This document shows positions 14,430 through 62,190 of a stretch of 64,000 nt of DNA, piece after piece; position 1 is the first letter of the stretch; every line of letters begins with the position of its first letter. The notes under the pieces were generated by a model. That model saw only the letters and a program-made list of their open reading frames with translations. It was not told the origin of the DNA and did not search any database. The DNA is from Heptranchias perlo (taxonomy: Eukaryota), in contig NC_090357.1 in assembly GCF_035084215.1 (NCBI RefSeq), positions 19,096,001 to 19,160,000 on the forward strand, read 5' to 3'. Made by a program: the position numbers and the translations under genes.

Positions 14430-17378
14430 CTAGTCCCAATTGCCTGCACTTGGCCCATATCCCTCGATACCCATCTTCCCCATGTAACTGTCCAAATGCT
14501 TTTTAAAAGACAAAATTGTACCCGCCTCTACTACTGCCTCTGGCAGCTCGTTCCAGACACTCACCACCCTTTGAGTGAAAAAATTGCCCCTCTGGATCCT
14601 TTTGTATCTCTCCCCTCTCACCTTAAATCTGTGCCCCCTCGTTATAGACTCCCCTACCTTTGGGAAAAGATTTTGACTATCGACCTTATCTATGCCCCTC
14701 ATTATTTTATAGACTTCTATAAGATCACCCCTTAACCTCCTACTCTCCAGGGAATAAAGTCCCAGTCTGTCTAACCTCTCCCTATAAGTCAAACCATCAA
14801 GTCCCGGTAGCATCCTAGTAAATCTTTTCTGCACTCTTTCTAGTTTAATAATATCCTTTCTATAATAGGGTGACCAGAACTGTACACAGTACTCCAAGTG
14901 TGGCCTCACCAATGCCCTGTACATCTTCAACAAAACATCCCAACTCCTGCATTCAATGTTCTGACCAATGAAACCAAGCATGCTGAATGCCTTCTTCACC
15001 ACCCTATCCACCTGTGACTCCACTTTCAAGGAGCTATGAATCTGTACTCCTAGATCTCTTTGTTCTATAACTCTCCCCAACGCCCTACCATTAACGGAGT
15101 AGGTCCTGGCCCGATTCGATCTACCAAAATGCATCACCTCACATTTATCTAAATTAAACTCCATCTGCCATTCATCGGCCCACTGGCCCAATTTATCAAG
15201 ATCCCGTTGCAATCCTAGATAACCTTCTTCACTGTCCACAATGCCACCAATCTTGGTGTCATCTGCAAACTTACTAACCATGCCTCCTAAATTCTCATCC
15301 AAATCATTAATATAAATAACAAATAACAGCGGACCCAGCACCGATCCCTGAGGCACACCGCTGGACACAGGCATCCAGTTTGAAAAACAACCCTCGACAA
15401 CCACCCTCTGTCTTCTGTCGTCAAGCCAATTTTGTATCCAATTGGCTACCTCACCTTGGATCCCATGAGATTTAACCTTATGTAACAACCTACCATGCGG
15501 TACCTTGTCAAATGCTTTGCTGAAGTCCATGTAGACCACGTCTACTGCACAGCCCTCATCTATCTTCTTGGTTACCCCTTCCAAAAACTCAATCAAATTC
15601 GTGAGACATGATTTTCCTCTCACAAAACCATGCTGACTGTTCCTAATTAGTCCCTGCCTCTCCAAATGCCTGTAGATCCTGTCCCTCAGAATACCCTCTA
15701 ACAACTTACCCACTACAGATGTCAGGCTCACTGGTCTGTAGTTCCCAGGCTTTTCCCTGCCGCCCTTCTTAAACAAAGGCACAACATTTGCTACCCTCCA
15801 ATCTTCAGGCACCTCACCTGTAGCGGTGGATGATTCAAATATCTCTGCTAGGGGACCCGCAATTTCCTCCCTAACCTCCCATAACGTCCTGGGATACATT
15901 TCATCAGGTCCCGGAGATTTATCTACCTTGATGCGCGTTAAGACTTCCAGCACCTCCCTCTCTGTAATATGTACACTCCTCAAGACATCACTATTTATTT
16001 CCCCAAGTTCCCTAACATCCATGCCTTTCTCAACCGTAAATACCGATGTGAAATATTCATTCAGGATCTCACCCATCTCTTGTGGTTCCGCACTTAGATG
16101 ACCTTTTTGATCCTTAAGAGGCCCTACTCTCTCCCTAGTTACCCTTTTGCCCTTTATGTATTTGTAGAAGCTCTTTGGATTCACCTTTGCCTGATCTGCC
16201 AAAGCAATCTCATATCCCCTTTTTGCCCTCCTGATTTCTCTCTTAACTCTACTCCGGCAATCTCTATACTCTTCAAGGGATCCACTTGATCCCAGCTGCC
16301 TATGCATGTCATATGCCTCCTTCTTATTTTTGACTAGTGCCTCAATCTCCCGAGTCATCCAAGGTTCCCTACTTCTACCAGCCTTGCCCTTCACTTTATA
16401 AGGAATGTGCTTACCCTGAACCCTGGTTAACACACTTTTGAAAGCCTCCCACTTACCAGACGTCCCTTTGCCTGCCAACAGACTCTCCCAATCAACTTCT
16501 GAAAGTTCCTGTCTAATACCATCAAAATTGGCCTTTCCCCAATTTAGAATTTTAACTTTTGGGCCAGACCTATCCTTCTCCATAGCTATCTTAAAACTAA
16601 TGGAATTATGATCACTGGTCCCAAAGTGATCCCTCACTAACACTTCTGTCACCTGCCCTTCCTTATTTCCCAAGAGGAGGTCAAGTTTTGCCCCCTCTCT
16701 AGTCGGGCCATCCACATACTGAATGAGAAATTCCTCCTGAATACACTCAACAAATTTCTCTCCATCCAAGCCCCTAATGCTATGGCTGTCCCAGTCAATG
16801 TTGGGAAAGTTAAAGTCCCCTACTATTACCACCCTATTTTTCTTGCAGCTGTCTGTAATCTCCTTACATATTTGCTCCTCAATTTCCCGTTGACTATTTG
16901 GGGGTCTGTAGTACAATCCTATCAAAGTGATCTCTCCCTTCTTATTTTTCAGTTCTACCCATATGGACTCAGTGGGCGAACCCTCGGATATATCCCCTCT
17001 CACTACTGCCGTGATGTTCTCCCTAATCAAGAACGCAACTCCCCCTCCTCTCTTACCTCCTGCTCTATCTTTCCTATAGCATCTGTACCCTGGAACATTG
17101 AGCTGCCAGTCCTGCCCCTCCCTTAGCCATGTTTCAGTAATAGCTATAACATCCCAGTCCCATGTACTCATCCATGCCCTGAGTTCATCTGCCTTGCCCA
17201 TCAGACTTCTTGCATTGAAATAAATGCAGTTTAATCTAGACTTCCCTTGGTCTTTGCCCTGCTTTCTCAGACCATCTGTCCGGTCATGTTCTGTACACTC
17301 TCCCTTACTGCCTTTTGTTTCTGTCACCACTTTATTTCCCACTGACTTCCTGCATCGGTTCCCATCCCCCTGCCACAT
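14430..17378 (-). CDS. CR1 ORF2: AP endonuclease + reverse transcriptase (982 aa from the ATG overlapping the ORF1 stop)
   Basis: YFNARSL, ITETW, GDFN and SDH endonuclease motifs; QGSVLGP and FADDTK RT motifs; no stops. Confidence 0.93.
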   Translation of the reverse strand: MWQGDGNRCRKSVGNKVVTETKGSKGECTEHDRTDGLRKQGKDQGKSRLNCIYFNARSLMGKADELRAWMSTWDWDVIAITETWLREGQDWQLNVPGYRCYRKDRAGGKRGGGVAFLIRENITAVVRGDISEGSPTESIWVELKNKKGEITLIGLYYRPPNSQREIEEQICKEITDSCKKNRVVIVGDFNFPNIDWDSHSIRGLDGEKFVECIQEEFLIQYVDGPTREGAKLDLLLGNKEGQVTEVLVRDHFGTSDHNSISFKIAMEKDRSGPKVKILNWGKANFDGIRQELSEVDWESLLAGKGTSGKWEAFKSVLTRVQGKHIPYKVKGKAGRSREPWMTREIEALVKNKKEAYDMHRQLGSSGSLEEYRDCRSRVKREIRRAKRGYEIALADQAKVNPKSFYKYIKGKRVTRERVGPLKDQKGHLSAEPQEMGEILNEYFTSVFTVEKGMDVRELGEINSDVLRSVHITEREVLEVLTRIKVDKSPGPDEMYPRTLWEVREEIAGPLAEIFESSTATGEVPEDWRVANVVPLFKKGGREKPGNYRPVSLTSVVGKLLEGILRDRIYRHLERQGLIRNSQHGFVRGKSCLTNLIEFLEGVTKKIDEGCAVDVVYMDFSKAFDKVPHGRLLHKVKSHGIQGEVANWIQNWLDDRRQRVVVEGCFSNWMPVSSGVPQGSVLGPLLFVIYINDLDENLGGMVSKFADDTKIGGIVDSEEGYLGLQRDLDKLGQWADEWQMEFNLDKCEVMHFGRSNRARTYSVNGRALGRVIEQRDLGVQIHSSLKVESQVDRVVKKAFSMLGFIGQNIECRSWDVLLKMYRALVRPHLEYCVQFWSPYYRKDIIKLERVQKRFTRMLPGLDGLTYRERLDRLGLYSLESRRLRGDLIEVYKIMRGIDKVDSQNLFPKVGESITRGHRFKVRGERYKRIQRGNFFTQRVVSVWNELPEAVVEAGTILSFKKHLDSYMGKMGIEGYGPSAGNWD

Positions 17379-17780
17379 TAGTTTAAACCCTCCCCAACAG
17401 CACTGGCAAACACTCCCCCTAGGACATTGGTTCCAGTCCTGCCCAGATGCAGACCGTCCAATTTGTACTGGTCCCACCTCCCCCAGAACCGGTTCCAATG
17501 GCCCAGGAATTTGAATCCCTCCAGCTTGCACCATCTCTCAAGCCACGTATTCATCTTAGCTATCCTGTCATTCCTACTCTGACTAACCCGTGGCACTGGT
17601 AGCAATCCTGAGATTACTACCTTTGAGGTCCTACTCTTTAGTTTAACTCCTAACTCCCTAAATTCAGCTTGTAGGACCTCATCCTGTTTTTTACCTATGT
17701 CGTTGGTGCCTATATGCACCACGACAACTGGCTGTTCACCCTCCCCCTCCAGAATGTCCTGCAGCCGCTCCGAGACATCA
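17378..17780 (-). CDS. CR1 ORF1 C-terminal part (SGNH/GDSL esterase-like), 5'-truncated
   Basis: VHIGTND and DGLH motifs; ends GEGLN*. Confidence 0.88.
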
Positions 17781-39974: not shown

Positions 39975-40600
39975 TTGGGGGAGAAAATAGGTTTTCGCGT
40001 GGAACCAGCGCAAAAACAGCGACTCATTGAAAATGTGTGCCAAAGACGGAGGCCCGTTACTCGCCCCAAATTGGACTGTGGGCTTCAAATTCCATCATAC
40101 CGGTGAGCTGCAGATGCCAATCAGCTATCTTGATGCAGCTCACTAGTCCGGGCCATCTGGAAATCATCTGGTTTGAACGCGAGTCAACCCACAGGTAAGT
40201 CCTGGGGTGGGTGGATGGGGGAGAAGGTGAACAGGAAGGTGATGAGCGCAGGCCAGCAGCACCCCGCAGTATTACTGTAGAGACAGGAGGAGCACTCTTG
40301 CTCTGCCTCACGCCACATTAAGGTAAGTGGAAACTGGAGAATGGAGCACTTCTTCCTTGGCCTGCAGCGGTCCCTTTAAGGACCGTTGGTTAGGCTGCCG
40401 TAGACCAGAAAAACTGAGCGCAGCATGCTCAGCACATGGTCCGCCCAGTCTTTGCCCAATTTGGTATTGGGGTCATGAAACAGGCCCTGATTAGCATATT
40501 CAAAGGGCCACATGCCTGATTCAGGTGAGCATTCTGAACTAAAAGTGGCCTGATCCAAAATGGTGATCTCGGAACATCCGGGTGCAATCGGGAGAATTGG
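39975..40600. mobile_element. Non-autonomous DNA transposon (Harbinger-like MITE)
   Basis: GGGGGAGAAAAT-type end; internal blocks shared with 63690-63860. Confidence 0.55.
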
Positions 40601-40699
40601 GGTTTCTTTCTATGCTTTTATTTTCTGATCATCCACTCTAGATACTGCTGTTTTGGTTCTTGAACACCAAGTTATAGTCCAACAAATTTATTTTAAATT

Positions 40700-40737
40700 C
40701 CACAAGCTTTCGGAGGCTTCCTCCTTCCTCAGGTGAA
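40700..40737 (-). ncRNA. Minimal type I hammerhead ribozyme
   Basis: Reverse complement of 40791-40829. Confidence 0.8.
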
Positions 40738-40790
40738 CGGTGTGGAAACTGTTGTTCGCTGCTTGTATTGTTTTTTCCATTTCCACACCG

Positions 40791-40829
40791 TTCACCTGAG
40801 GAAGGAGGAAGCCTCCGAAAGCTTGTGGA
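40791..40829 (+). ncRNA. Minimal type I hammerhead ribozyme
   Basis: TTCAC-CTGAGGA-A-GGAGG/AAG/CCTCC-GAAA-GC-TT-GTGGA. Confidence 0.82.
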
Positions 40830-41164
40830 ATTTAAAATAAATTTGTTGGACTATAACTTGGTGTTGTAAAATTGTTTACAATTGTCAACCCCAGTCCATC
40901 ACCGGCATCTCCACATCTTGGTTCTTGAAGTTATCAGTATTTCGATTCATTTACTGTATCACCGGTTACTGCACCACCTGCTGGTCACATACAGTGCCAT
41001 CTGTGACATCTGGCTGCAGAAGACTGTTGTTCGCTGCTTGTATTGTTTTTTGAAACAGCAACAGTTTTTGGTTTTGATATTCATATTATGTCAACTAGCA
41101 AACTCACAAACACCGATGAATAATTTTTTAAAAAGCTGTCAACTCAGAAAACGACCAACAACCA

Positions 41165-42300
41165 ATGAACAAATTTGTGGACGACACCAAATTGGGGGGT
41201 GTAGTTAATACAAAGGAAGAATGCGCCAAAAGGCAAGAAGTCATTAATAAGCTTGCGGAATGGGCGTGTAATTGGCAAATGGATTTCAATATAGATAAGC
41301 TTGAGGTGGTGCATTTTGGTAGGAAGAATAAGGAGGCCACATACTGCTTGGATAATAAGAGTTTAAATGGGGTAGAGAAGGAAAGGGATCTAGGGGTACA
41401 GATACACAAATCACTAAATGTGGAGATGCCGGTGATGGACTGGGGTGGACAAATAGGGAATCTTACAACACCAGGTTATAGTCCAACAGTTTTATTTGAA
41501 AATCACAAGCTTTCGGAGGCTTTCTCCTTCGAAGGAGAAAGCCTCCGAAAGCTTGTGATTTTCAAATAAAACTGTTGGACGATCACCTGGTGTTGTAAGA
41601 TTCCTTACAAATCACTAAAAGTAGCGACACAGGTTAATAAGGCCATGTAAAAGGCAAATCAAACACTAGGATTCATTTCTAGAGGGACAGAATTGAAAAG
41701 CAGTGAAGTTATGTTAAGCTTGTATAGAACCTAGGTGAGACCACACTTGGAGTACTGTGCACAGTTCTGATCTCCATATTATAAAAAAGATATAGAGGTA
41801 TTGGAGAAGGTGCAAAAAAAATCCACAAAGATCATACCAGAACTGAGAGGATGTACTTATCAGAAAAGGCTGAACAGGCTGGGGCTCTTTTCCTAGAAAA
41901 GAGAAAGTTGAGGGGAGACCTGATAGGGGTCTTTAAGATAATGAAAGGATTTGATAGGGTAGACATAGAGAAAATGTTTCCACTTGTGGGGGAGTCTAAA
42001 ACAAAAGGTCATAAGTATGAGCTGGTCACTAATAAATCCAATAGGGAATTCAGGAGAAACTTCTTTATCCAAAGAATGGTAAGAATATGGAATGCGCTAC
42101 CACAAGGAGTAGTTGAGGCAAATAGCATAGATGCCTTTAAGGGAAAGCTAGATAAGTGCATGAGGCAGAAAGGAATAGAAGGATATGCTGATAGGGCTGT
42201 ATGAAGAGGGGTGGGAGGAGGCTCTTGTGGAGCATAAATGCCGGCATAGTCCAGTTGTGTCGAATGACCTGTTACTGTGCTGTAGATTCGATGTAACTCA
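41165..42300 (+). mobile_element. CR1 3' fragment interrupted by a Penelope-like insertion
   Basis: KFVDDTKLGG..., LRGDLIGVFKIMKG, WNALP. Confidence 0.9.
41419..41606. mobile_element. Penelope-like palindromic insertion (family A), loop-less centre
   Basis: Centre CTCCTTC|GAAGGAG at 41530/41531, tail on the left, TSD ACAAATCACTAAA at 41406-41418 and 41607-41619. Confidence 0.92.
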
Positions 42301-42337: not shown

Positions 42338-43088
42338 CTGCTCTGAGATGACTAAATAAATTGCATTTTTTTGCAGCATGGGATTTCAGAACTGTTTACA
42401 AAGTTTTGGGGATTGAATTCTGCAGTTGTGCTTGTTTTACAGTGAAAATTAAACCGAAAAATGTTGAGTGGAGCAGACTAGGCCCGTAGGCAAGTCCAGC
42501 GACTGCACAACATCATCAACGTCATCTGTGCAAGGGGTACATCTCCAGAAATTGCCAGACACTCGAAGGCAGTCCCTTATAATGCCATCTGAACACATCA
42601 TTGATGAAGACATTGAATAGGATGGGTGACAGTGGACAATCTTACCACACTCTTCTGTCAAGAGATATAAGCCCCAATTTTAACCTAACCACCCGATGAG
42701 AAGGTGGCGAGTTCGGATCGCTGGCCTGATTTGCAACCCGCTTCATTTTACGCTCTATTATCTTCAACGGAACGTGAAATCAGGCGGGGTGTAAATCGGA
42801 CATCTGTGCTGCACCCGATCCAATCTCGCGGGGCAGTTGTGTTCAGATGGCATTATGAGGGACTGCCTTCGAGTGTCTGGCAATTTCTGCAAATGTACCC
42901 CTTGCACAGATGACGTTGTGCAGTCGCTGGACTTGCCTATGGATCTAGTCTGCTCTACTCAACATTTTTCGGTTTCATTTTCACTGTAAAACAAGCACAA
43001 CTGCAGAATTCAATCCCCAAAACTTTGTAAACAGTTCTGAAATCCCATGCTGCAAAAAAATGCAATTTATTTAGTCATCTCAAAGCAG
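42338..43088. repeat. About 250-bp inverted repeat (42338-42597 / 42838-43088)
   Basis: Arms are reverse complements with scattered mismatches and one short indel. Confidence 0.93.
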
Positions 43089-43529: not shown

Positions 43530-45776
43530 TGTAAAAGGAGAGTCCGAGAGTGGGAGGAGAGTCCAAGAGGTGAGCGCAGTGTAAAAGGAGAGTCCAAGAG
43601 GTGAGCGCAGTGTGGGAGGAGAGTCCAAGAGGTGAGCGCAGTGTGGGAGGAGAGTCCGAGAGGTGAGCGCAGTGTGGGAGGAGAGTCCGAGAGGTGAGTG
43701 CAGTGTGGGAGGAGAGTCCGAGAGGTGAGTGCAGTATAAAAGGAGAGTCCGAGAGGTGAGCGCAGTGTGGGAGGAGAGTCCGAGAGGTGAGTGCAGTGTG
43801 GGAGGAGAGTCCGAGAGGTGAGTGCAGTATAAAAGGAGAGTCCGAGAGGTGAGTGCAGTGTGGGAGGAGAGTCCGAGAGGTGAGCGCAGTGTGGGAGGAG
43901 AGTCCGAGAGGTGAGTGCAGTGTAAAAGGAGAGTCCAAGAGGTGAGCGCAGTGTGGGAGGAGAGTCCAAGAGGTGAGCGCAGTGTGGGAGGAGAGTCCGA
44001 GAGGTGAGCGCAGTGTGGGAGGAGAGTCCGAGAGGTGAGTGCAGTGTGGGAGGAGAGTCCGAGAGGTGAGTGCAGTATAAAAGGAGAGTCCGAGAGGTGA
44101 GTGCAGTGTAAAAGGAGAGTCTGAGAGGTGAGTGCAGTGTAAAAGGAGAGTCCGAGAGGTGAGTGCAGTGTGGGAGGAGAGTCCGAGAGGTGAGTGCAGT
44201 GTGGGAGGAGAGTCCGAGAGGTAAGTGCAGTGTGGGAGGAGAGTCCGAGAGGTGAGTGCAGTGTGGGAGGAGAGTCCGAGAGGTGAGTGCAGTGTAAAAG
44301 GAGAGTCCGAGAGGTGAGTGCAGTGTGGGAGGAGAGTCCGAGAGGTGAGCGCAGTGTGGGAGGAGAGTCCGAGAGGTGAGTGCAGTGTGGGAGGAGAGTC
44401 CGAGAGGTAAGTGCAGTGTGGGAGGAGAGTCCGAGAGGTGAGTGCAGTGTGGGAGGAGAGTCCGAGAGGTGAGTGCAGTGTGGGAGGAGAGTCCGAGAGG
44501 TAAGTGCAGTGTGGGAGGAGAGTCCGAGAGGTGAGTGCAGTGTGGGAGGAGAGTCCGAGAGGTAAGTGCAGTGTGGGAGGAGAGTCCGAGAGGTGAGCGC
44601 AGTGTAAAAGGAGAGTCCGAGAGGTGAGCGCAGTGTGGGAGGAGAGTCCGAGAGGTGAGTGCAGTGTGGGAGGAGAGTCCGAGAGGTGAGCGCAGTGTAA
44701 AAGGAGAGTCCGAGAGGTGAGCGCAGTGTGGGAGGAGAGTCCGAGAGGTGAGTGCAGTGTGGGAGGAGAGTCCGAGAGGTAAGTGCAGTGTGGGAGGAGA
44801 GTCCGAGAGGTGAGTGCAGTGTGGGAGGAGAGTCCGAGAGGTAAGTGCAGTGTGGGAGGAGAGTCCGAGAGGTGAGTGCAGTGTGGGAGGAGAGTCCGAG
44901 AGGTGAGTGCAGTGTGGGAGGAGAGTCCGAGAGGTGAGCGCAGTGTGGGAGGAGAGTCCGAGAGGTGAGCGCAGTGTAAAAGGAGAGTCCGAGAGGTGAG
45001 CGCAGTGTGGGAGGAGAGTCCGAGAGGTGAGTGCAGTGTGGGAGGAGAGTCCGAGAGGTGAGTGCAGTGTGGGAGGAGAGTCCGAGAGGTGAGCGCAGTG
45101 TAAAAGGAGAGTCAGAGAGGTGAGTGCAGTGTAAAAGGAGAGTCCGAGAGGTGAGTGCAGTGTAAAAGGAGAGTCCGAGAGGTGAGTGCAGTGTAAAAGG
45201 AGAGTCCGAGAGGTGAGTGCAGTGTGGGAGGAGAGTCCAAGAGTGGGAGGAGAGTCCGAGAGGTGAGTGCAGTGTGGGAGGAGAGTCCAAGAGTGGGAGG
45301 AGAGTCCGAGAGGTGAGCGCAGTGTAAAAGGAGAGTCCGAGAGCGAGAAGAGAGTCCGAGAGGTGAGTGCAGTGTCAAAGGAGAGTCCGAGAGCCGGAGG
45401 AGAGTCCGAGAGCGGGAGGAGAGTCCGAGAGGTGAGCGCAGTGTAAAAGGAGAGTCCGAGAGGTGAGTGCAGTGTGGGAGGAGAGTCCAAGAGTGGGAGG
45501 AGAGTCCGAGAGGTGAGTGCAGTGTGGGAGGAGAGTCCAAGAGTGGGAGGAGAGTCCGAGAGGTGAGCGCAGTGTAAAAGGAGAGTCCGAGAGCGAGAAG
45601 AGAGTCCGAGAGGTGAGTGCAGTGTCAAAGGAGAGTCCGAGAGCCGGAGGAGAGTCCGAGAGCGGGAGGAGAGTCCGAGAGGTGAGCGCAGTATAAAAGG
45701 AGAGTCCGAGAGGTGAGCGCAGTGTAAAAGGAGAGTCTCGAGAGCAGGAAGAGAGTCCGAGAGGTGAATGCAATGT
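43530..45776 (+). repeat. 31-bp tandem array (about 70 units), GAGAGTCCGAGAGGTGAGYGCAGTGT(GGGAG/AAAAG)
   Basis: Direct periodicity, 31-aa periodic antisense ORFs, and a 250-bp higher-order duplication near 45240-45720. Confidence 0.97.
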
Positions 45777-48700
45777 AAATCTAAGGCAAGTTTGTGGCAG
45801 CAGAGCTCGCACCAGTGATATGCTCCTCCTGTACCATGTGGGAAGTCATGGACACTATAGGTGTCCCTGGCGACCATGTATGCAGGAAGTATGTCCAGCT
45901 GCAGCTACTGACTAACCGTATTTCAGAGCTGGAGCTGTGGGTGGATTCACTGTGGAGCTTCCGCGATGCTGAGATTATCGTGGATAACACGTTCAGTGAG
46001 GTGGTCACACCGCAGGTAAAGATCACGCAGGCAGAAAGGAAATGGGCGACCGCCAGGCAGAGTAAAAGGACTAGGCAGGTAGAGCAGGAGTCCCCTGGGG
46101 CCATCTCCCTCTCAAACAGATATACCGCTTTGGATACTGTTGGGGGAGACGGCTTATCAGGGGAAAGCAGCAAGAGCCAAGTTCGTGGCACCACGGGTGG
46201 TTCTGCTGCACAGGAGGGGAGGAATAAGAGTGGCAGGGCTATAGTGATAGGGGATTCAATTGTAAGGGGAACAGATAGGCGTTTCTGTGGCCGCAAACGT
46301 GACTCCAGGATGGTATGTTGCCTCCCTGGTGCTAGGGTCAAGGATGTCACGGAGCAGCTGCAGGGCATTCTGGAGGGGGAGGGTGAACAGGCAGTAGTCG
46401 TGGTCCATATCGTTACCAACAACATAGGTAAAAAAGGGATGAGGTCTTGCAAGGTAAATTTAAGGAGCGAGGAGATAACTTAAAAAGCAGGATCTCAGTG
46501 CCATCTGCTAGTGAGTATAGGAACAGGAGAATAGACCAGATGAATGCGTGGTTGCAGGGATGGTGTAGGAGGGAGGGGTTTAGATTCCTGGGGCATTGGG
46601 ACCAGTTCTGGGGAAGGTGGGACCTGCACAAGCGTGACAGGTTATACCCGAGCAGGACTGGGACCGATGTCCTCGCAAGGGTGTTTGCAAGTGCTGTTGG
46701 GGAAGGTTCAAACTAGAATGGCAGGGGGATGGGAACCTGAGCAGGAAGACAGAGCAGGGGGAACAAGGATAGAAACAAAAGACAGAAAGGGAAGAAGCAA
46801 TAGTGGAAGGCAGAGAAAATAAGGGCGAAAAACAAATGGAGCCACAGTGCAAAATAAAACTAAGATGACTAGCAATCTTAAAAAGACAAGTCTAAAGGCA
46901 TTGTGCATTAATGCGCGGAGCGTTTGGAATAAGTTAGATGAATTAACAGCGCAGATAGATATTAATGGATATGATATAGTTGCGATTATGGAGACATGGC
47001 TGCAGGGTGACCAAGGATGGGAACTGAACATTCAGGGGTATTCAATATTTAGGAAGAACAGGCAAAAAGGGAGAGGAGGTGGGTTAGCATTGTTAGTAAA
47101 GGAGGAGATCAATGCAATAGTGAGGAAGGATATTGGCTCGGAAAATCACGATGTGGAATCTGTATGGGTGGAGCGAAGAAACACCAAGAGGTAGAAAACG
47201 TTGGTGGGGTTGTCTATAGGCCCCCAAACAGTAGTGGAGATGTAGGGGAGGGCATTAAACAGGAAATTAGAGATGCATGCAAGAAGGGTACAACTATAAT
47301 CATGGGTGACTTTAATCTACATATAGATTGGTCAAACCAAATTAGCAATAATACTGTGGGGGAGGAATTCCTCGAGCGTGATGGTTTTCTAGACCAATAC
47401 GTTGAGGAACCAACTAGAGAACAGGTGATCCTAGACTGGGTATTGTGCAATGAGAAAGGATTAATTAACAATCTTGCTGTGCGGGGTCCCTGAGGGAAGA
47501 GCGGCCATAACATGATAGAATTCCTCATTAAGATGGAGAGTGAAGTAGTTGAATCCGAAACTAAGGTCCTGAATCTAAATAAAGGTAATTATGAAAGTAT
47601 GAGGTGCGAGTTGGCTATGATAGATTGGGGAACTTTACTAAAAGGGATGACGGTGGATAGGCAATGGCTAATATTTAAAGAACGTGTGCAGGAATTACAA
47701 CAATTATTCATTCTTGTCTGGGGCAAAAATAAAACAGGAAAGGTGGCTCAACCGTGGATTACAAAAGAAATTAGGGATAGTATTAGATCCAAAGAGGAGA
47801 CATATAAAATTGCCAGAAAAAGAGGCAAGCCTAAGGATTGGGAACAGTTCAGAATTCAGCAAAGGAGGACAAAGAGATTGATGAAGAGAGGACAAATAGG
47901 GTATGAGAGTAAACTAGCAGGGAACATAAAAACTGACTGTAAAAGCTTCTATTACTATGTCAAGAGAAAAAGATTAGTGAAGGCAAATGTAGGTCCCTTA
48001 CAGTCAGAAATGGGGGAAATTATAACAGGGAACAAAGAAATGGCAGAGCAATTAAATACATACTTTGGTTCTGTCTTCACAAGGGCGGACACACATAACC
48101 TCCCAGAAATGTTAGGGAACCAAGGGTCTAGTGAGAGGGAGGAACTGAAGGAAACCAGTATTAGTAAAAGAAAATAGTGCTAGGGAAATAAATGGGGCTA
48201 AAGGCTGACAAATCCCCAGGGCCTGATAATCTATATCCCAGAGTACTAAAGGAAGTGGTCCTGGAAATAGTGGATGCATTGGTGATCATCTTCCAAAATT
48301 CTATAGACTCTGGAACAGTTCCTACAGATTGGAGGGTGGCAAATGTAACCCCACTATTTAAAAAAGGAGGGAGAGAAAAAACAGGAAATTACAGACCAGT
48401 TAGCCTAACATCAGTAGTGGGGAAAATGCTAGAGTCTATTATAAAAGATGTGATAACAGAACACTTGGAGGGCATTAACGGGATTGGACAAAGTCAGCAT
48501 GGGTTTATGAAAGGGAAATCATGCTTAACAAATTTACTGGAGTTTTTTGAGGGTGTAACTAGTAGAATAGATAGGGGAGAACCAGTGGATGTGGTGTATT
48601 TGGATTTTCAGAAGGCTTTTGATAAGGTTCCACACAAGAGGTTAGTATGCAAAATTAAAGCACATGGGATTGGGGGGAATATACTGGCATGGATTGAGAA

Positions 48701-49745
48701 TTGGTTGAGAGACAGGAAACAGAGAGTAGGAATAAACGGGTCTTTTTCCGGGTGGCAGGCAGTGACTAGTGGGTACCACAGGGATCAGTGCTTGGGCCCC
48801 AGCTATTCAAAATATAGATCAATGATTTGGATGAGGGAACTAAATGTAACATTTCCAAGTTTGCAGACGACACAAAGCTGGGGTGGAACGTGAGCTATGA
48901 GGAGCATGCAAAGAGGCTCCAATATGATTTAGACAAGTTGGGTGAGTGGGCAAGAACATGGCAGATGCAGTATAATGTGGATAAATGTGAGGTTATCCAC
49001 TTTGGTTGTAAAAACAGAAAGACAGATTATCATCTGAATGGTGATAGATTGGAAAAAAGGGAGTTGCAATGAGACCTGGGTGTCCTTGTACACCAGTCGC
49101 TGAAAGCGAGCATTCAGGTGCAGCAAGCAGTTAGGAAGGCGAATGGTATGTTGGACCTCATTGCAAGAGGATTTGAGTACAGGAGCAGGGATGTCTTACT
49201 GCAGTTATACGGGGCCTTGGTGAGACCACATCTGGAGTATTGTGTGCAGTTTTGGTCTCCTTATCTGAGGAAGGATGTCCTTGCCATGGAGGAAATGCAA
49301 TGAAGGTTTACCAGACTGATTCCTGGGATGGCAGGACTGACGTATGAGGAGAGATTAGGTCGACTAGGCCTATATTCACTAGAGTTGTAACAGGACTAGA
49401 CAGACTAGATGCAGAGAGGATGTTCCCAATGGCTGGGGAGTCCAGAACCAGGGGTCACAGTCTCAGGATACAGGGTATGCCGTTTAGAACCGAGATGAGG
49501 AGAAATTTCTTCACTCAGAGGGTGGTGAACCTGTGGAATTCTCTACCACTGAAGGCATAGGAGTACAAGTCATTAGATGTATTCAAGAAGGAAATAGATA
49601 TATGTATTAATGCTAAGGGGATCACGGGATATGGGGGAAAAAGCGGGAACAGGGTACTGAGTTAGATGATCAGCCACGATCATTGTGAATGGCGGAGCAG
49701 GCCCAAAGGGCCGAATGGCCTACTCTTGCTCTTATTTTCTATGTT
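45777..49745 (+). mobile_element. Near full-length inactivated CR1 LINE, inverted twin of 27095-31590
   Basis: ORF1 45794-46716 and ORF2 fragments 46847-49660, highly similar to the minus-strand copy. Confidence 0.95.
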
Positions 49746-49857
49746 ACCTTAAGCAGCTGATTGAGGAGACGCCAATAATCCTGGAGAACAATACCAGGAA
49801 CTACCCACTTACTTTGGAGCTGCCTTTTCCGAGACAGGTGAATAGAATTTTCTGCTA

Positions 49858-51870
49858 ATAACAGCAACTTGCATTTATATAGCACCTTAAACGTCCCAAC
49901 TTCACAGGAGCGATTATCAAAAAAAATTTGACACCGAGCCACATAAAAAGATATTAGAGCAGGTGACAAGAGGTAGGTTTTAAGGAGCGTCTTATAGGAG
50001 GAGAAAGAGGTAGAGAGGTGGAGAGGTTTAGGGAGGGAATTCCAGAGCTTAGGACCTAGGCAGCTGAAGGCACGGCTGCCAATGATGGTGGCAAAAAAAT
50101 TGGGAATGCGCAAGAGGCCAGAATGGGAGAAGAGCAGTGACCTCAGAATGTTTTAGGGTTGGAGGATGTTACAGAGATAGGGAGGGGTGAGGCCATGGAG
50201 AGATTTGAAAACAAGGATGAGAAGTTTAAAATCGAGGCATTGTCGGACCGGGAGCTAATGTCGGTCAGCGAGCACAGGGTGATGGTTGACTAGGACTTGG
50301 TGCGAGTTAGGATATGGTCAGCAGAGTTTTACAGAGGGTGCAAGGTGGGAGGCCAGCCTGAAGAACATAAGAACATAAGAAATTGGAGCAGGAGTAGGCC
50401 AATCGGCCCCTCGAGCCTGCTCCGCCATTCAATAAGATCATGGCTGATCTGATCCCAACCACAAATCTAAAGAACACAAGAAGTCGGAGCAGGACCCGGC
50501 CACACAGCCCCTGGGCCCTCTCCGCCACCCACAGGGCATTGACCGATCCGAACTCAGCTTCATGTCCAATTTCCTGCCCGCTCCCCATAACCCCTAATTC
50601 CCTTTACTTCTAGGAAACTGTCTATTTCTGTTTTAAATTTATCTAATGATGTAGCTTCCACAGCTTCCTGGGGCAGCAAATTCCACAGACCTACCACCCT
50701 CTGAGTGAAGAAGTTTCTCCTCATCTCAGTTTTGAAAGAGCAGCCCCTTATTCTAAGATTATGCCCCCTAGTTCTAGTTTCACCCATCTTTGGGAACATC
50801 CTTACTGCATCCACCCGATCAAGACCCTTCACAATCTTATATGTTTCAATAAGATCGCCTCTCATTCTTCTGAACTCCAATGAGTAGAGTCCCAATCTAC
50901 TCAACCTCTCCTCATATGTCCGCCCCCTCATCCCCGGGATTAACCGAGTGAACCTTCTTTGTACTGCCTCGAGAGCAAGTATGTCTTTTCTTAAGTATGG
51001 AGACCAAAACTGTATGCAGTATTCCAGGTGCGGTCTCACCAATACCTTATATAACTGCAGCAATACCTCCTTGTTTTTATATTCTATCCCCCTAGCAATA
51101 AAAGCCAACATTCCGTTGGCTTTCTTGATCACCTGCTGCACCTGCAAACTAACTTTTTGATTTTCTTGCACTAGGACCCCCAGATCCCTTTGTACTGCAG
51201 TACTTTCCAGTCTCTCGCCATTAAGAAAATAACTTGCTCTCTGATTTTTCCTGCCAAAGTGCATAACCTCACATTTTCCAATATTATATTGCATCTGCCA
51301 AATCTCCGCCCACTCACCCAGCCTGTCTATATCCCCTTGCAGGTTTTTTATGTCCTCCTCACTCTCTACTTTCCCTCCCATCTTTGTATCATCTGCAAAT
51401 TTTGATATGTTGCACTCGGTCCCCTCCTCCAAATCGTTAATATAGATTGTAAAGAGTTGGGGACCCAGCACCGACCCCTGTGGAACACCACTGGTTACTG
51501 GTTGCCAGTCCGAAAATGAACCATTTATCCCAACTCTCTGCTTCCTGTTCGATAACCAATCCTCCACCCATGCCAGAATATTACCCCCAATCCCGTGATT
51601 TTTTATCTTAAGTAATAATCTTTTATGTGGCACCTTGTCGAATGCCTTCTGGAAGTCTAAATACACTATGTCCACTGGTTCCCCTTTATCCACCCTATAC
51701 AATTGGAATAGTAGAGTCTGGAGGTAACAAAAGGTTATCATCTGCTGCTGAGGGTTTCAGCAGCAAGTGAGCTGAGGCAGGGGCGATATTATGGAGGTGA
51801 AAGTGGGCGGTCTTGGTAATGGAGAGGATATGTGGTCGGAAGTTAAGCTCAGGGTCAAATAGGAACCAAT
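49858..51870 (-). mobile_element. L2 LINE 3' end split by a young CR1
   Basis: GSRAFSCLGPKLWNSLP..KTLLKTYL; tail AACTTGCATTTATATAGC; resumes at about 51700. Confidence 0.8.
50361..51697 (-). mobile_element. Young 5'-truncated CR1 with open RT C-terminal half
   Basis: Stop-free frame 51697->50560; (TTCTTATG)n tail. Confidence 0.95.
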
Positions 51871-58682: not shown

Positions 58683-61179
58683 CAGAAATTTTGTTCAGCA
58701 CACTGTTGTAAATGACACAAACAGTAATGCAGGACCTGCCTAACCACTCTTTATATACTATTGCAACATTCTCCAAGTATTGGAAGTTTCAACAAACACG
58801 TACAATTGTACCAGCAGCCAGAAGCAATAATCCAGCCACTAACCTGCAACACCTGCATGATCCCTTTAAATAGCACTGGTGGGGGATCCTCAAGGCCGTC
58901 TAAGATGTGTTCAGCTGTTCCTGGTTAAGAAAGTTAATTGGCTGGAGCATTGAGTTCCAAAATGGTGTCTATCCCTTTAAATCAGCATTGCACACTGATC
59001 TAATGCACATTCTTCCTAATTTACATGATGCTGGCGTTCATTATCTGCATGTGTGCAAACGCCTTTACCAAAATAGCGTCTGACGCACAACATGCCAGAA
59101 GCATGGCGCATTCTGGATGCCATTTTGGGGCCTTAAGAGGCCGCGTAGTGCCAGAAAAACGGGTGCTACACAGCCAAATTTGTTTACAATAGCTCTTAAT
59201 AATAACTTGTGGTAAATAAGGTTGGTGAGCTGAAGGTTCAAGTCGCCACATGGGACTATGATATAGTGGCAATAACAGAGAGCTGGCTCAAAGAAGGGGA
59301 GGATTGGGTACTTAATATTCCTGGCTACAAGGTATTCAGGAAAGATAGGGAAGGAAAGAAAGGAGTGGGGGGGTGTGGCAGTATTGATCAAAGAAACTAT
59401 TCTAGCACTGGAAAGGGATGATATAGTTGAGGGGTCAAAGACAGAATCTATTTGGTTAGAATTAAGGAACAATAGAGGAGCTATTACACTACTGGGTGTA
59501 TACTAAAGGCTACCAAATAGTGGGAAGGAGGTAGAGGAGCAAATTTGCAGAAAAATCACAGAAAGATGCAAGAACTATGGAGTAGTGATAATGGGGGACT
59601 GCAATTATCCCAATATAGGCTGGGACAGTAATAGTGTAAAGGGCAAAGAGGGGGAGGAATTCCTGAAATGTGTTTGAGAGTACTTTCTGGAACAGTGTGT
59701 TTCCAGCCAACCAGGAAGGAAACAGTGCTGAATCGAGTCCTGGGGAATGAAGTGGGGCAGGTGGAGCATGTTACAGTGGGGGAGCATTTGGGGAACAGTG
59801 ATCATAATATCATTATGTTTAGAATAGTTATGGAAAAGGACAAGGAACTATCAATGTGAAAATGCTTAATTGGAGGAGGGCAAATTTCAGTGAGTTATAA
59901 GGGGATCCTGCCCAGGTGGAATGGAATCAAAAATTGGTAGGCAAAATAGTAATTGAACAATGGGAGGCCTTCAAGGAGCAATTGGTTCAGGACAAATTAG
60001 GGACAAAAAAGGAGATCTTCTTGTGGAGGCAGAGAGCACGTCTGAGGTGCTAAATGAATACTTCGCATCCATCTTCACTGGAGAAGTGGATGCTGCCATT
60101 GTAGCAGTAAAGGAGGAGGTAGTAGCGATATTGGATAGGATAAAAATAGATAAAGGAGGTACTTAAAAGATTGGCAGTACCCAAAGTAGAAAAGTGACCT
60201 GGTCCAGATGGTTCCATCCAAGGTTACTGAGGGAAGTAAGGGTGGAAATCATCCAGTCCTCCTTAGATATGGGGATGATGCTAGAGGACTGGAGGATTGC
60301 AAATGCTACGGTCCCTGTTCAAAAAAGGGGAGAGGGATAAACCCGGCAATTACATGCCAGTCGGCCTAACATCGGTGGTGGGGAAACTTTTAGAGACAAT
60401 AACCTGGGACAAAATGAATTGGCACTTGGAAAAGTATGGGCTAATAAATGAAAGTCAGCACAGATTTGTTAAAGGAAAATCACGTTTGACTAACCTGATT
60501 GAGTTTTTTGATGAAGTAACGGAAAAGGGTTCATGAGGGTAGTATGGCTGATGTTGTGTATATGGACTTACAAAAGACATTTGATGAAGTACCACATAAT
60601 AGACTTGTTAGCAATATTAATGCCCGTGAGATTAAAGGGACAGTGGCAGCATGGATACAAAATTGGCTAGGGGACAAAAAGCAGAGAGTAGTGGTGAACG
60701 GTTGTTTTTCAGACTAGAGGGAAGTATATGGTAGTGTTCCTTAGGGATCAGTATTGGGACCAATGCTTTTTTTGATATATATTAATGACCTGGACTTGGG
60801 TATAGAAGGTATAATTTCCAAAATTTGAGATGACACAAAACTCAGAAATGTAGTAAACAATGTGAAGGTTAGTAACAGACTTCAGGAGGACACAGACATA
60901 CTGGTGAAATGGGCAGACATGTGGCAGATGAAATTTAACGCAGAGAAGTGTGAAAAGTGTGAAATGCATTTTGGTAGGAAAAATAAGGAGAGGCAATATA
61001 AACTAAATGGTACAATTTTAAAGGAACAGAGACACCTTGGGGTGCACATACATAAATCTTTGAAGGTGGCAGAACAAGTTGAGAAGGCTGTTAAAAAAGC
61101 ATATGGGATCTTGGGCTTTATTAATAGATGTAAGGAATCTTACAACACCAGGTTATAGTCCAACTGTTTTATTTGAAAA

Positions 61180-61216
61180 TCACAAGCTTTCGGAGGCTTT
61201 CTCCTTCGTCAGGTGA
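61180..61216 (-). ncRNA. Minimal type I hammerhead ribozyme
   Basis: TCAC-CTGACGA-A-GGAG/AAAGC/CTCC-GAAA-GC-TT-GTGA. Confidence 0.8.
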
Positions 61217-61479
61217 GCGAGTGTGGGATTCCATGGAAGGTTACCGCATTTATATTCAGAGAACAATACCTGGTGATTACAGATAATCTTTCCAACTGCC
61301 CGTTGTCAAGGCAATCAAAGTGTTCAGACAGAGTGATGTTACCTACAGGACCACCGAATACACAAACGGCCAGAACACAAAACAGAGAGAGAGAGAGAGG
61401 GAGAAACATCCGAAAGGAAGAGAAAGACAGAGAATGACCCGTTGTGTTAAAAACAGATAACTTTTTTTCGCTGGTGGGG

Positions 61480-61760
61480 TTACGTGTAGCGTGACATGAA
61501 CCCAAGATCCCGGTTGAGGCCGTCCTCATGGGTGCGGAACTTGGCTATCAATTTCTGCTCGACGATTTTGCGTTGTCGTGTGTCTCGAAGGCCGCCTTGG
61601 AGAACGCTTACCCGAAGATCGGTGGCTGAATGTCCTTGACTGCTGAAGTGTTCCCCGACTGGGAGGGAACCCTCCTGTCTGGCGATTGTTGCGCGGTGTC
61701 CGTTCATCCGTTGTTGCAGTGTCTGCATGGTCTCGCCAATGTACCATGCTACGGGGCATC
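61480..61760 (-). pseudogene. C-terminal GIY-YIG endonuclease of a Penelope-like ORF (5'-truncated)
   Basis: CPVAWYIGETMQTLQQRMNGHR..VGEHF..RKIVEQKLIAKFRT..GLNRD. Confidence 0.9.
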
Positions 61761-62153
61761 CTTCAAGCGTACTCCAAGGCGGCCTTCGAGACACACGACA
61801 ACGCAAAATCGTCGAGCAGAAATTGATAGCCAAGTTCCGCACCCATGAGGACGGCCTCAACCGGGATCTTGGGTTCATGTCACGCTACACGTAACCCCAC
61901 CAGCAAAAAAAAGTTATCTGTTTTTAACACAACGGGTCATTCTCTGTCTTTCTCTTCCTTTCGGTTGTTTCTCCCTCTCTCTCTCTGTTTTGTGTTCTGG
62001 CCGTTTGTGTATTCGGTGGTCCTGTAGGTAACATCACTCTGTTTGAACACTTTGATTGCCTTGACAACGGGCAGTTGGAAAGATTATCTGTAATCACCAG
62101 GTATTGTTCTCTGAATACAAATGCGGTAACCTTCCATGGAATCCCACACTCGC

Positions 62154-62190
62154 TCACCTGACGAAGGAGAAAGCCTCCGAAAGCTTGTCA
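62154..62190 (+). ncRNA. Minimal type I hammerhead ribozyme (one stem I mismatch)
   Basis: CTGACGA at 62158-62164, GAAA at 62179-62182. Confidence 0.72.

Follow-up and report, generated by a model that had tools for sequence, protein, structure and literature searches.

A palindromic insertion of a Penelope-like element in the shark Heptranchias perlo contains, at its centre, a short filler that was copied from host DNA beside the insertion. It lies in a window of 64,000 nt (NC_090357.1, positions 19,096,001 to 19,160,000, forward strand), which is the whole stretch of DNA that was analysed and to which all positions below refer. The filler is host-derived and does not correspond to the sequence found upstream in other copies of the family; this means that the centre was made at this locus, and was not inherited from a palindromic master copy. 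The filler also shows that a free, extendable 3′ end was present at the centre. We consider that two target-primed cDNAs were joined at integration, after one of them had made an aborted priming on the flank, with a probability of roughly 60%.

The insertion is enclosed by a 12-nt target-site duplication (TSD), the left copy of which is at 40653-40664 and the right copy at 40918-40929, with 12 of 12 positions identical (features are on the plus strand unless stated otherwise). In the alignment of the element end, the final two bases of the left TSD also match the element, which gives a 2-nt microhomology at the priming site. The inverted arm, which has no tail, occupies 40663-40748 on the minus strand, and all of its 86 nt are complementary to the paired portion of the tailed arm (40780-40865), which is in the sense orientation of the element. 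A tail of 52 nt (40866-40917) is present on this second arm only. With total lengths of 86-141 nt, both arms are stumps. The perfect 86-nt arms are separated by a loop of 31 nt (40749-40779), and the copy of host DNA occupies 40748-40776. Base 40748 is common to the left arm and to the donor, forming a 1-nt microhomology; therefore, the inserted length is 28 nt, not 29 nt. The initial annotation had taken a 29-mer as the loop itself, and was thus correct about the exact copy and incorrect about its extent. The three unpaired bases after the filler (40777-40779) are probably element sequence, the right arm being slightly longer. Contig support for this covers 40778-40779, where a loose end precedes 40778 in three contigs (X5); 40777 is outside that support.

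The donor (41023-41051) is on the same strand as the filler and starts 93 nt beyond the right TSD; the distance from the template to the junction is 246 nt. These two sites are the sole matches to the 29-mer in the 64 kb at up to three mismatches, which bears out the earlier claim of an exact local copy in the same orientation. The match is not extendable in either direction. Among 31-nt tiles of the window, 113 of 2026 had a match of at least 20 nt within 500 nt, and all of these matches other than the filler and donor pair lie in palindromes or tandem arrays. A modest hairpin, which closes near 41065 (fold of -5.8 to -7.4 kcal/mol), has its base at the start of the donor, where there is also a 7-nt inverted repeat; 401 of 61400 positions have a repeat of this kind. 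The sequence spanning the left junction has a 10-nt match at 40327-40336, 330 nt upstream (78 of 5000 random junctions reach at least 10 nt), and a 9-nt inverted match is found at 41059-41067. The hairpin and these two matches are after-the-fact leads for multi-step priming, and leads only.

Coverage was checked with contigs from 4 of 21 listed sequencing runs. In X1, which is possibly the source of the window itself, the donor region has a depth of 7.24 and is covered by one contig (40896-41199, two other letters). The summed depth in X1 is approximately 1e6 on the arms as against approximately 7 on the unique flank; the former value is not a copy number. By this difference, the donor is single-copy. 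X11, which is from a different organism, shows a depth of zero in the bins of the element (40670-40889) and on the arms of a sister copy (E4, described below). One X11 contig covers approximately 41029-41127, and its differences from the window are at 41067-41114, with none within the donor among those listed. X11 thus has the donor region without the element, which means that the donor is older host DNA and that copying ran from the flank to the centre. The depth of X11 on both focal flanks is compatible with an empty site; no empty-site joint for the focal insertion was found among the joints listed. Position 41114 is T in both X1 and X11 and C in the window, which is either an allele or an assembly difference.

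No contig spanning the focal centre was found among those listed, and the filler is known from the assembly alone. This would be in keeping with a filler that was inherited from a master copy, or arose by assembly error or by chance. However, no match to the 29-mer was obtained in 100 shuffles, and the chance of such a match over 2000 local sites is approximately 1e-14 under a dinucleotide model. Among the joints listed, the other copies of the family skip the 29-mer and show different centres and a different upstream sequence; the 29-mer is therefore not part of the element consensus, which the initial annotation had named as a refutation. In addition, the donor is single-copy in X1 and adjoins the focal insertion. 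An origin of this kind is very improbable.

The template might also have been a nascent transcript of the host. A single host gene was found, with its coding exons at 24271-9974, 16 kb off, which weighs neither way, and we are neutral on this point. This gene is Siglec-like and on the minus strand, with coding exons at 24271-24221, 23686-23339, 19826-19518, 14230-13904, and 10069-9974, and with a partial, diverged exon copy at 20337-20158. An Ig exon in the window has 100% identity to a Siglec-like protein from the annotation of Heptranchias perlo, and the window proteins match those of cartilaginous fish. An intron of the gene contains, in the same orientation, an open frame of 1034 residues with AP endonuclease and RT domains (LINE ORF2; 14430-17537, minus strand). 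Other repeats in the window are a large inverted repeat at 42338-43088 (260-nt arms, 93% alike, with a 240-nt spacer), which is unlike the Penelope arm; a 31-bp minisatellite of approximately 70 copies at 43550-45767, grading into periods of 50 and 119 bp; and two opposed LINE-like RT fragments at 48570-51690, which are 69% alike over approximately 1.1 kb.

The focal insertion is a young Penelope-like element. Its plan matches that of endonuclease-bearing (EN+) Penelope-like elements, as given in the available text of PMC8557442 and PMC3846280. In all five copies in the window, an inverted, 5′-truncated copy lies beside a direct copy, with the whole unit within the TSD. The tail of 30-40 bp at one end is seen as approximately 30-39 nt in the four sister copies and 52 nt in the focal copy. 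The focal copy carries no ORF, and is tied to the sister copy E5 by 88% identity across 136 nt. An RT with a C-terminal GIY-YIG domain is represented in E5 only, by a 93-aa C-terminal piece (61761-61483, minus strand). This piece is 93% identical to P0002, which carries RVT_1, and at most 95% identical to Heptranchias perlo proteins; its Pfam match to GIY-YIG is weak (E 0.011, below the cut-off). A candidate minimal type I hammerhead was found by motif scan at 40791-40829, and its mirror image runs from 40737 on the minus strand. It consists of CUGANGA, stem II, GAAA, a palindromic helix III, and a 5-bp stem I. By the same scan, hammerhead motifs are predicted in both focal arms, both E2 arms, and one E5 arm. 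An Rfam search gave no hammerhead match; an architecture of this kind is known in Penelope pLTRs (PMC4209133, in its available text). The microRNA matches from Rfam were sub-threshold and were produced by the hairpin shape, and a microRNA identity was rejected. A search with the first family motif gave no matches in metagenome, genome, and viral contigs. The second family motif gave three metagenome loci, which are alike over 23-24 nt only and were regarded as unrelated.

The four sister copies have the same plan and different centres. E1 (255-425) has a 13-nt TSD and a T5 filler, and its tail-less arm is approximately 12 nt longer at the centre. E2 (1839-2504) has arms of approximately 300 nt, a 13-nt TSD, and a 2-nt filler, the tailed arm being 8 nt longer. 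E4 (41406-41619) has 77-nt arms with three mismatches and a 13-nt TSD, and its centre is a self-complementary 2-nt overlap (CG). E5 (61117-62293) has arms of approximately 480 nt, a 12-nt TSD, and a 1-nt filler, and its tail-less arm is approximately 154 nt longer and carries the GIY-YIG C-terminus. E4 was inserted into a high-copy LINE-like repeat; loose ends are found at 41530/41531, and other copies of the repeat give empty-site joints. In order of E1, E2, the focal copy, E4, and E5, the centre sizes are +5, +2, +28, -2, and +1, and they look like end-joining products. The initial annotation described the other centres as blunt or with fillers of 2-3 nt; this is roughly right, except that the centre at 41530/41531 is not blunt. 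Many further distinct centres were found in X1 among the joints listed. All five window copies have a TSD of 12-13 nt enclosing the pair of arms, of which one alone is tailed, and one of the five copies has a templated filler: at the other four centres, no flank match was above background (longest 8 nt). The 2-nt filler of E2 lies within a 5-nt tandem duplication (2180-2195), which might have arisen by a tiny slip-back on the start of the right arm; it amounts to 5 nt only.

We propose the following course of events for the focal copy. The RT/GIY-YIG enzyme of the element would cut both strands 12 nt apart, and one cDNA would be primed at each nick, one at the tail end of the RNA and the other at an internal site. 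Both cDNAs would stop early, leaving two identical 3′ ends face to face. Identical facing ends could pair only via a chance self-complementary overlap, and would be a poor substrate for annealing; the join in E4 seems to have used a palindromic dinucleotide. At the focal site, the simplest path would be that the left cDNA end used the 1-nt microhomology to prime on the downstream flank, on its opposite strand, copied 28 nt, and was released in a T run. The released end would then be annealed to the right cDNA end and filled in, with a final microhomology of 0-2 nt. The filler might have been made by an end-joining polymerase of the host or by the RT of the element itself. According to the available text of PMC11167929, in vitro cleavage and extension of both strands were shown for the Poseidon protein of the anole, with starts at two sites of the RNA by which the tail is defined, and a dimer is predicted. 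Insertions in the form of a direct repeat are in keeping with one end having been primed on the other end after its resection (PMC7165422, available text).

The initial annotation considered that the filler directly supports a two-ended model. In this wording the claim is not supported, since a filler would also result if a single cDNA had visited the flank before folding back: on leaving the RNA, this cDNA would have copied 28 nt of the flank, and then itself as the second arm. This is a variant of the reading of Arkhipova et al. in 2013, by whom palindromes at Penelope inversion junctions were read as self-priming (PMC3846280, available text). Of the two focal arms, the tailed one is the longer, as fold-back predicts, and the perfect identity of the arms would be accounted for. 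However, the tail-less arm is longer at the centre in two of the five copies (E1 and E5), and the arms of these copies each have private sequence. This means that they are not the product of one folded-back cDNA, unless the centre was trimmed later; the asymmetry could come from a later one-sided deletion. The asymmetry of E1 and E5 argues for two cDNAs more strongly than the filler does. Furthermore, a single cDNA leaves unexplained why the second arm ends near the same internal site in four of the five copies, and the in vitro extension of both strands mentioned above also speaks against it. A single folded-back cDNA is improbable at the focal site.

Some features count against the joining of two cDNAs at integration. 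The templated filler is a single event, and its template distances of 93 and 246 nt are beyond the 50 bp of polymerase theta and the 15 bp typical of L1. In addition, the tail-less arm of the focal copy has its start 16-18 nt deeper inside the element than those of its four sisters. In the sister copies, the tail-less arms (at 413, 2490, 41609, and 61128) begin just 3′ of a small RNA stem-loop; the focal start (40663) falls on the 5′ side of that stem-loop. The displaced start may be a second internal start site.

As to timing, the earlier claim that the centre was built in place stands, the filler being host-derived; the further claim that this took place at integration does not follow, since a later break at the centre could leave the same scar. 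The palindrome might have formed a hairpin or cruciform that was cut at its centre, with end joining adding the templated filler, which would then stabilise the palindrome and be silent on integration. In mice, palindrome centres undergo revision in the germ line. According to the available text of PMC7999016, a palindrome is prone to breakage when its arms are long and identical and its spacer is short, and spacers have a stabilising effect. Breakage at the centre would present the same pair of 3′ ends and give an identical product; therefore, the finished sequence alone cannot date the filler or separate integration from repair. Against later repair, there are no differences in the arms, TSD, or filler, which leaves little elapsed time: the focal copy has 0 differences in 127 compared positions, a count that bounds the divergence only at less than approximately 2.3%. 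The older E4, which has no spacer, kept its centre through its three mismatches, and E2, which is also older and has a centre of approximately 10 nt between 300-nt arms, is likewise unrevised. Later repair would need a resection of approximately 275 nt, as against approximately 122 nt from the integration nick. On the absence of differences and the persistence of the E4 centre, joining at integration is favoured, and later repair seems possible but unlikely.

A single filler, taken alone, is an ordinary repair scar. In the literature covered on Penelope structure and mechanism and on sharks, as far as its text was available and with the structure papers of 2005-2008 outside its scope, no paper was found to describe locally templated fillers at the inversion junctions of Penelope elements. 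Such fillers are already known for L1. The focal filler is a real and clean instance of a familiar type of scar, here in a new context. The formation of Penelope-like inverted structures is called undefined in the available text of PMC8557442. The available text of PMC11167929 calls the steps after priming not yet validated and offers no explanation of the inverted structure. It is conceivable, though rather doubtful, that all inverted Penelope insertions arise from two cDNAs primed by a dimer, with the element RT, in place of a host polymerase, hopping from RNA to host DNA approximately 100 nt from the cut and so bridging the two. If so, templated fillers would be a recurring class in the shark family, and would map the reach of free cDNA ends. 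As the family is very abundant in the shark, a genome-wide census of centres could separate joining of two cDNAs, fold-back, and later repair.

The focal copy shares with EN+ Penelope-like elements (PMC8557442, PMC3846280, PMC11167929; available text) the inverted, 5′-truncated copy, the tail at one end, and the TSD. The hammerhead motif of the pLTR is also shared, as is, through the sister copy E5, the C-terminal GIY-YIG. It differs in that its arms are stumps and its junction contains locally copied host DNA; the captured host spacers of 0.9-1.5 kb in PMC3846280 are a different structure. The initial annotation had named polymerase theta-mediated joining as a source of such fillers. In the available text of PMC7165422, the template of a theta insertion lies within 50 bp, at least 5 bp are identical to the flank, and single tracts are rarely longer than 10 nt. 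The focal filler resembles these insertions in being a direct repeat of the flank (28 nt), in falling within 3-30 bp, in its weak first microhomology, and in its end in a T run. However, its tract is 28 nt and the distance to its template is 93 nt when taken from the TSD and 246 nt when taken from the junction, so that the assignment to polymerase theta is not established; moreover, the ends joined would be cDNAs, not chromosome ends. L1 inversion junctions are end-joined (PMC2912911 and PMC11702581, available text), and templated genomic inserts were found in 22 of 3598 L1 insertions, typically at most 15 bp from the site (bioRxiv 10.1101/2024.08.27.596794, available text). L1 twin priming is alike in that two target-primed cDNAs are end-joined and local DNA is occasionally copied in. 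It gives mostly non-overlapping inverted pieces, whereas the focal arms duplicate the same 86 nt as a palindrome, and its templates are usually within 15 bp, whereas the focal template is 93 nt off. The focal copy is different in structure from the products of L1 twin priming, though the two may be alike in working.
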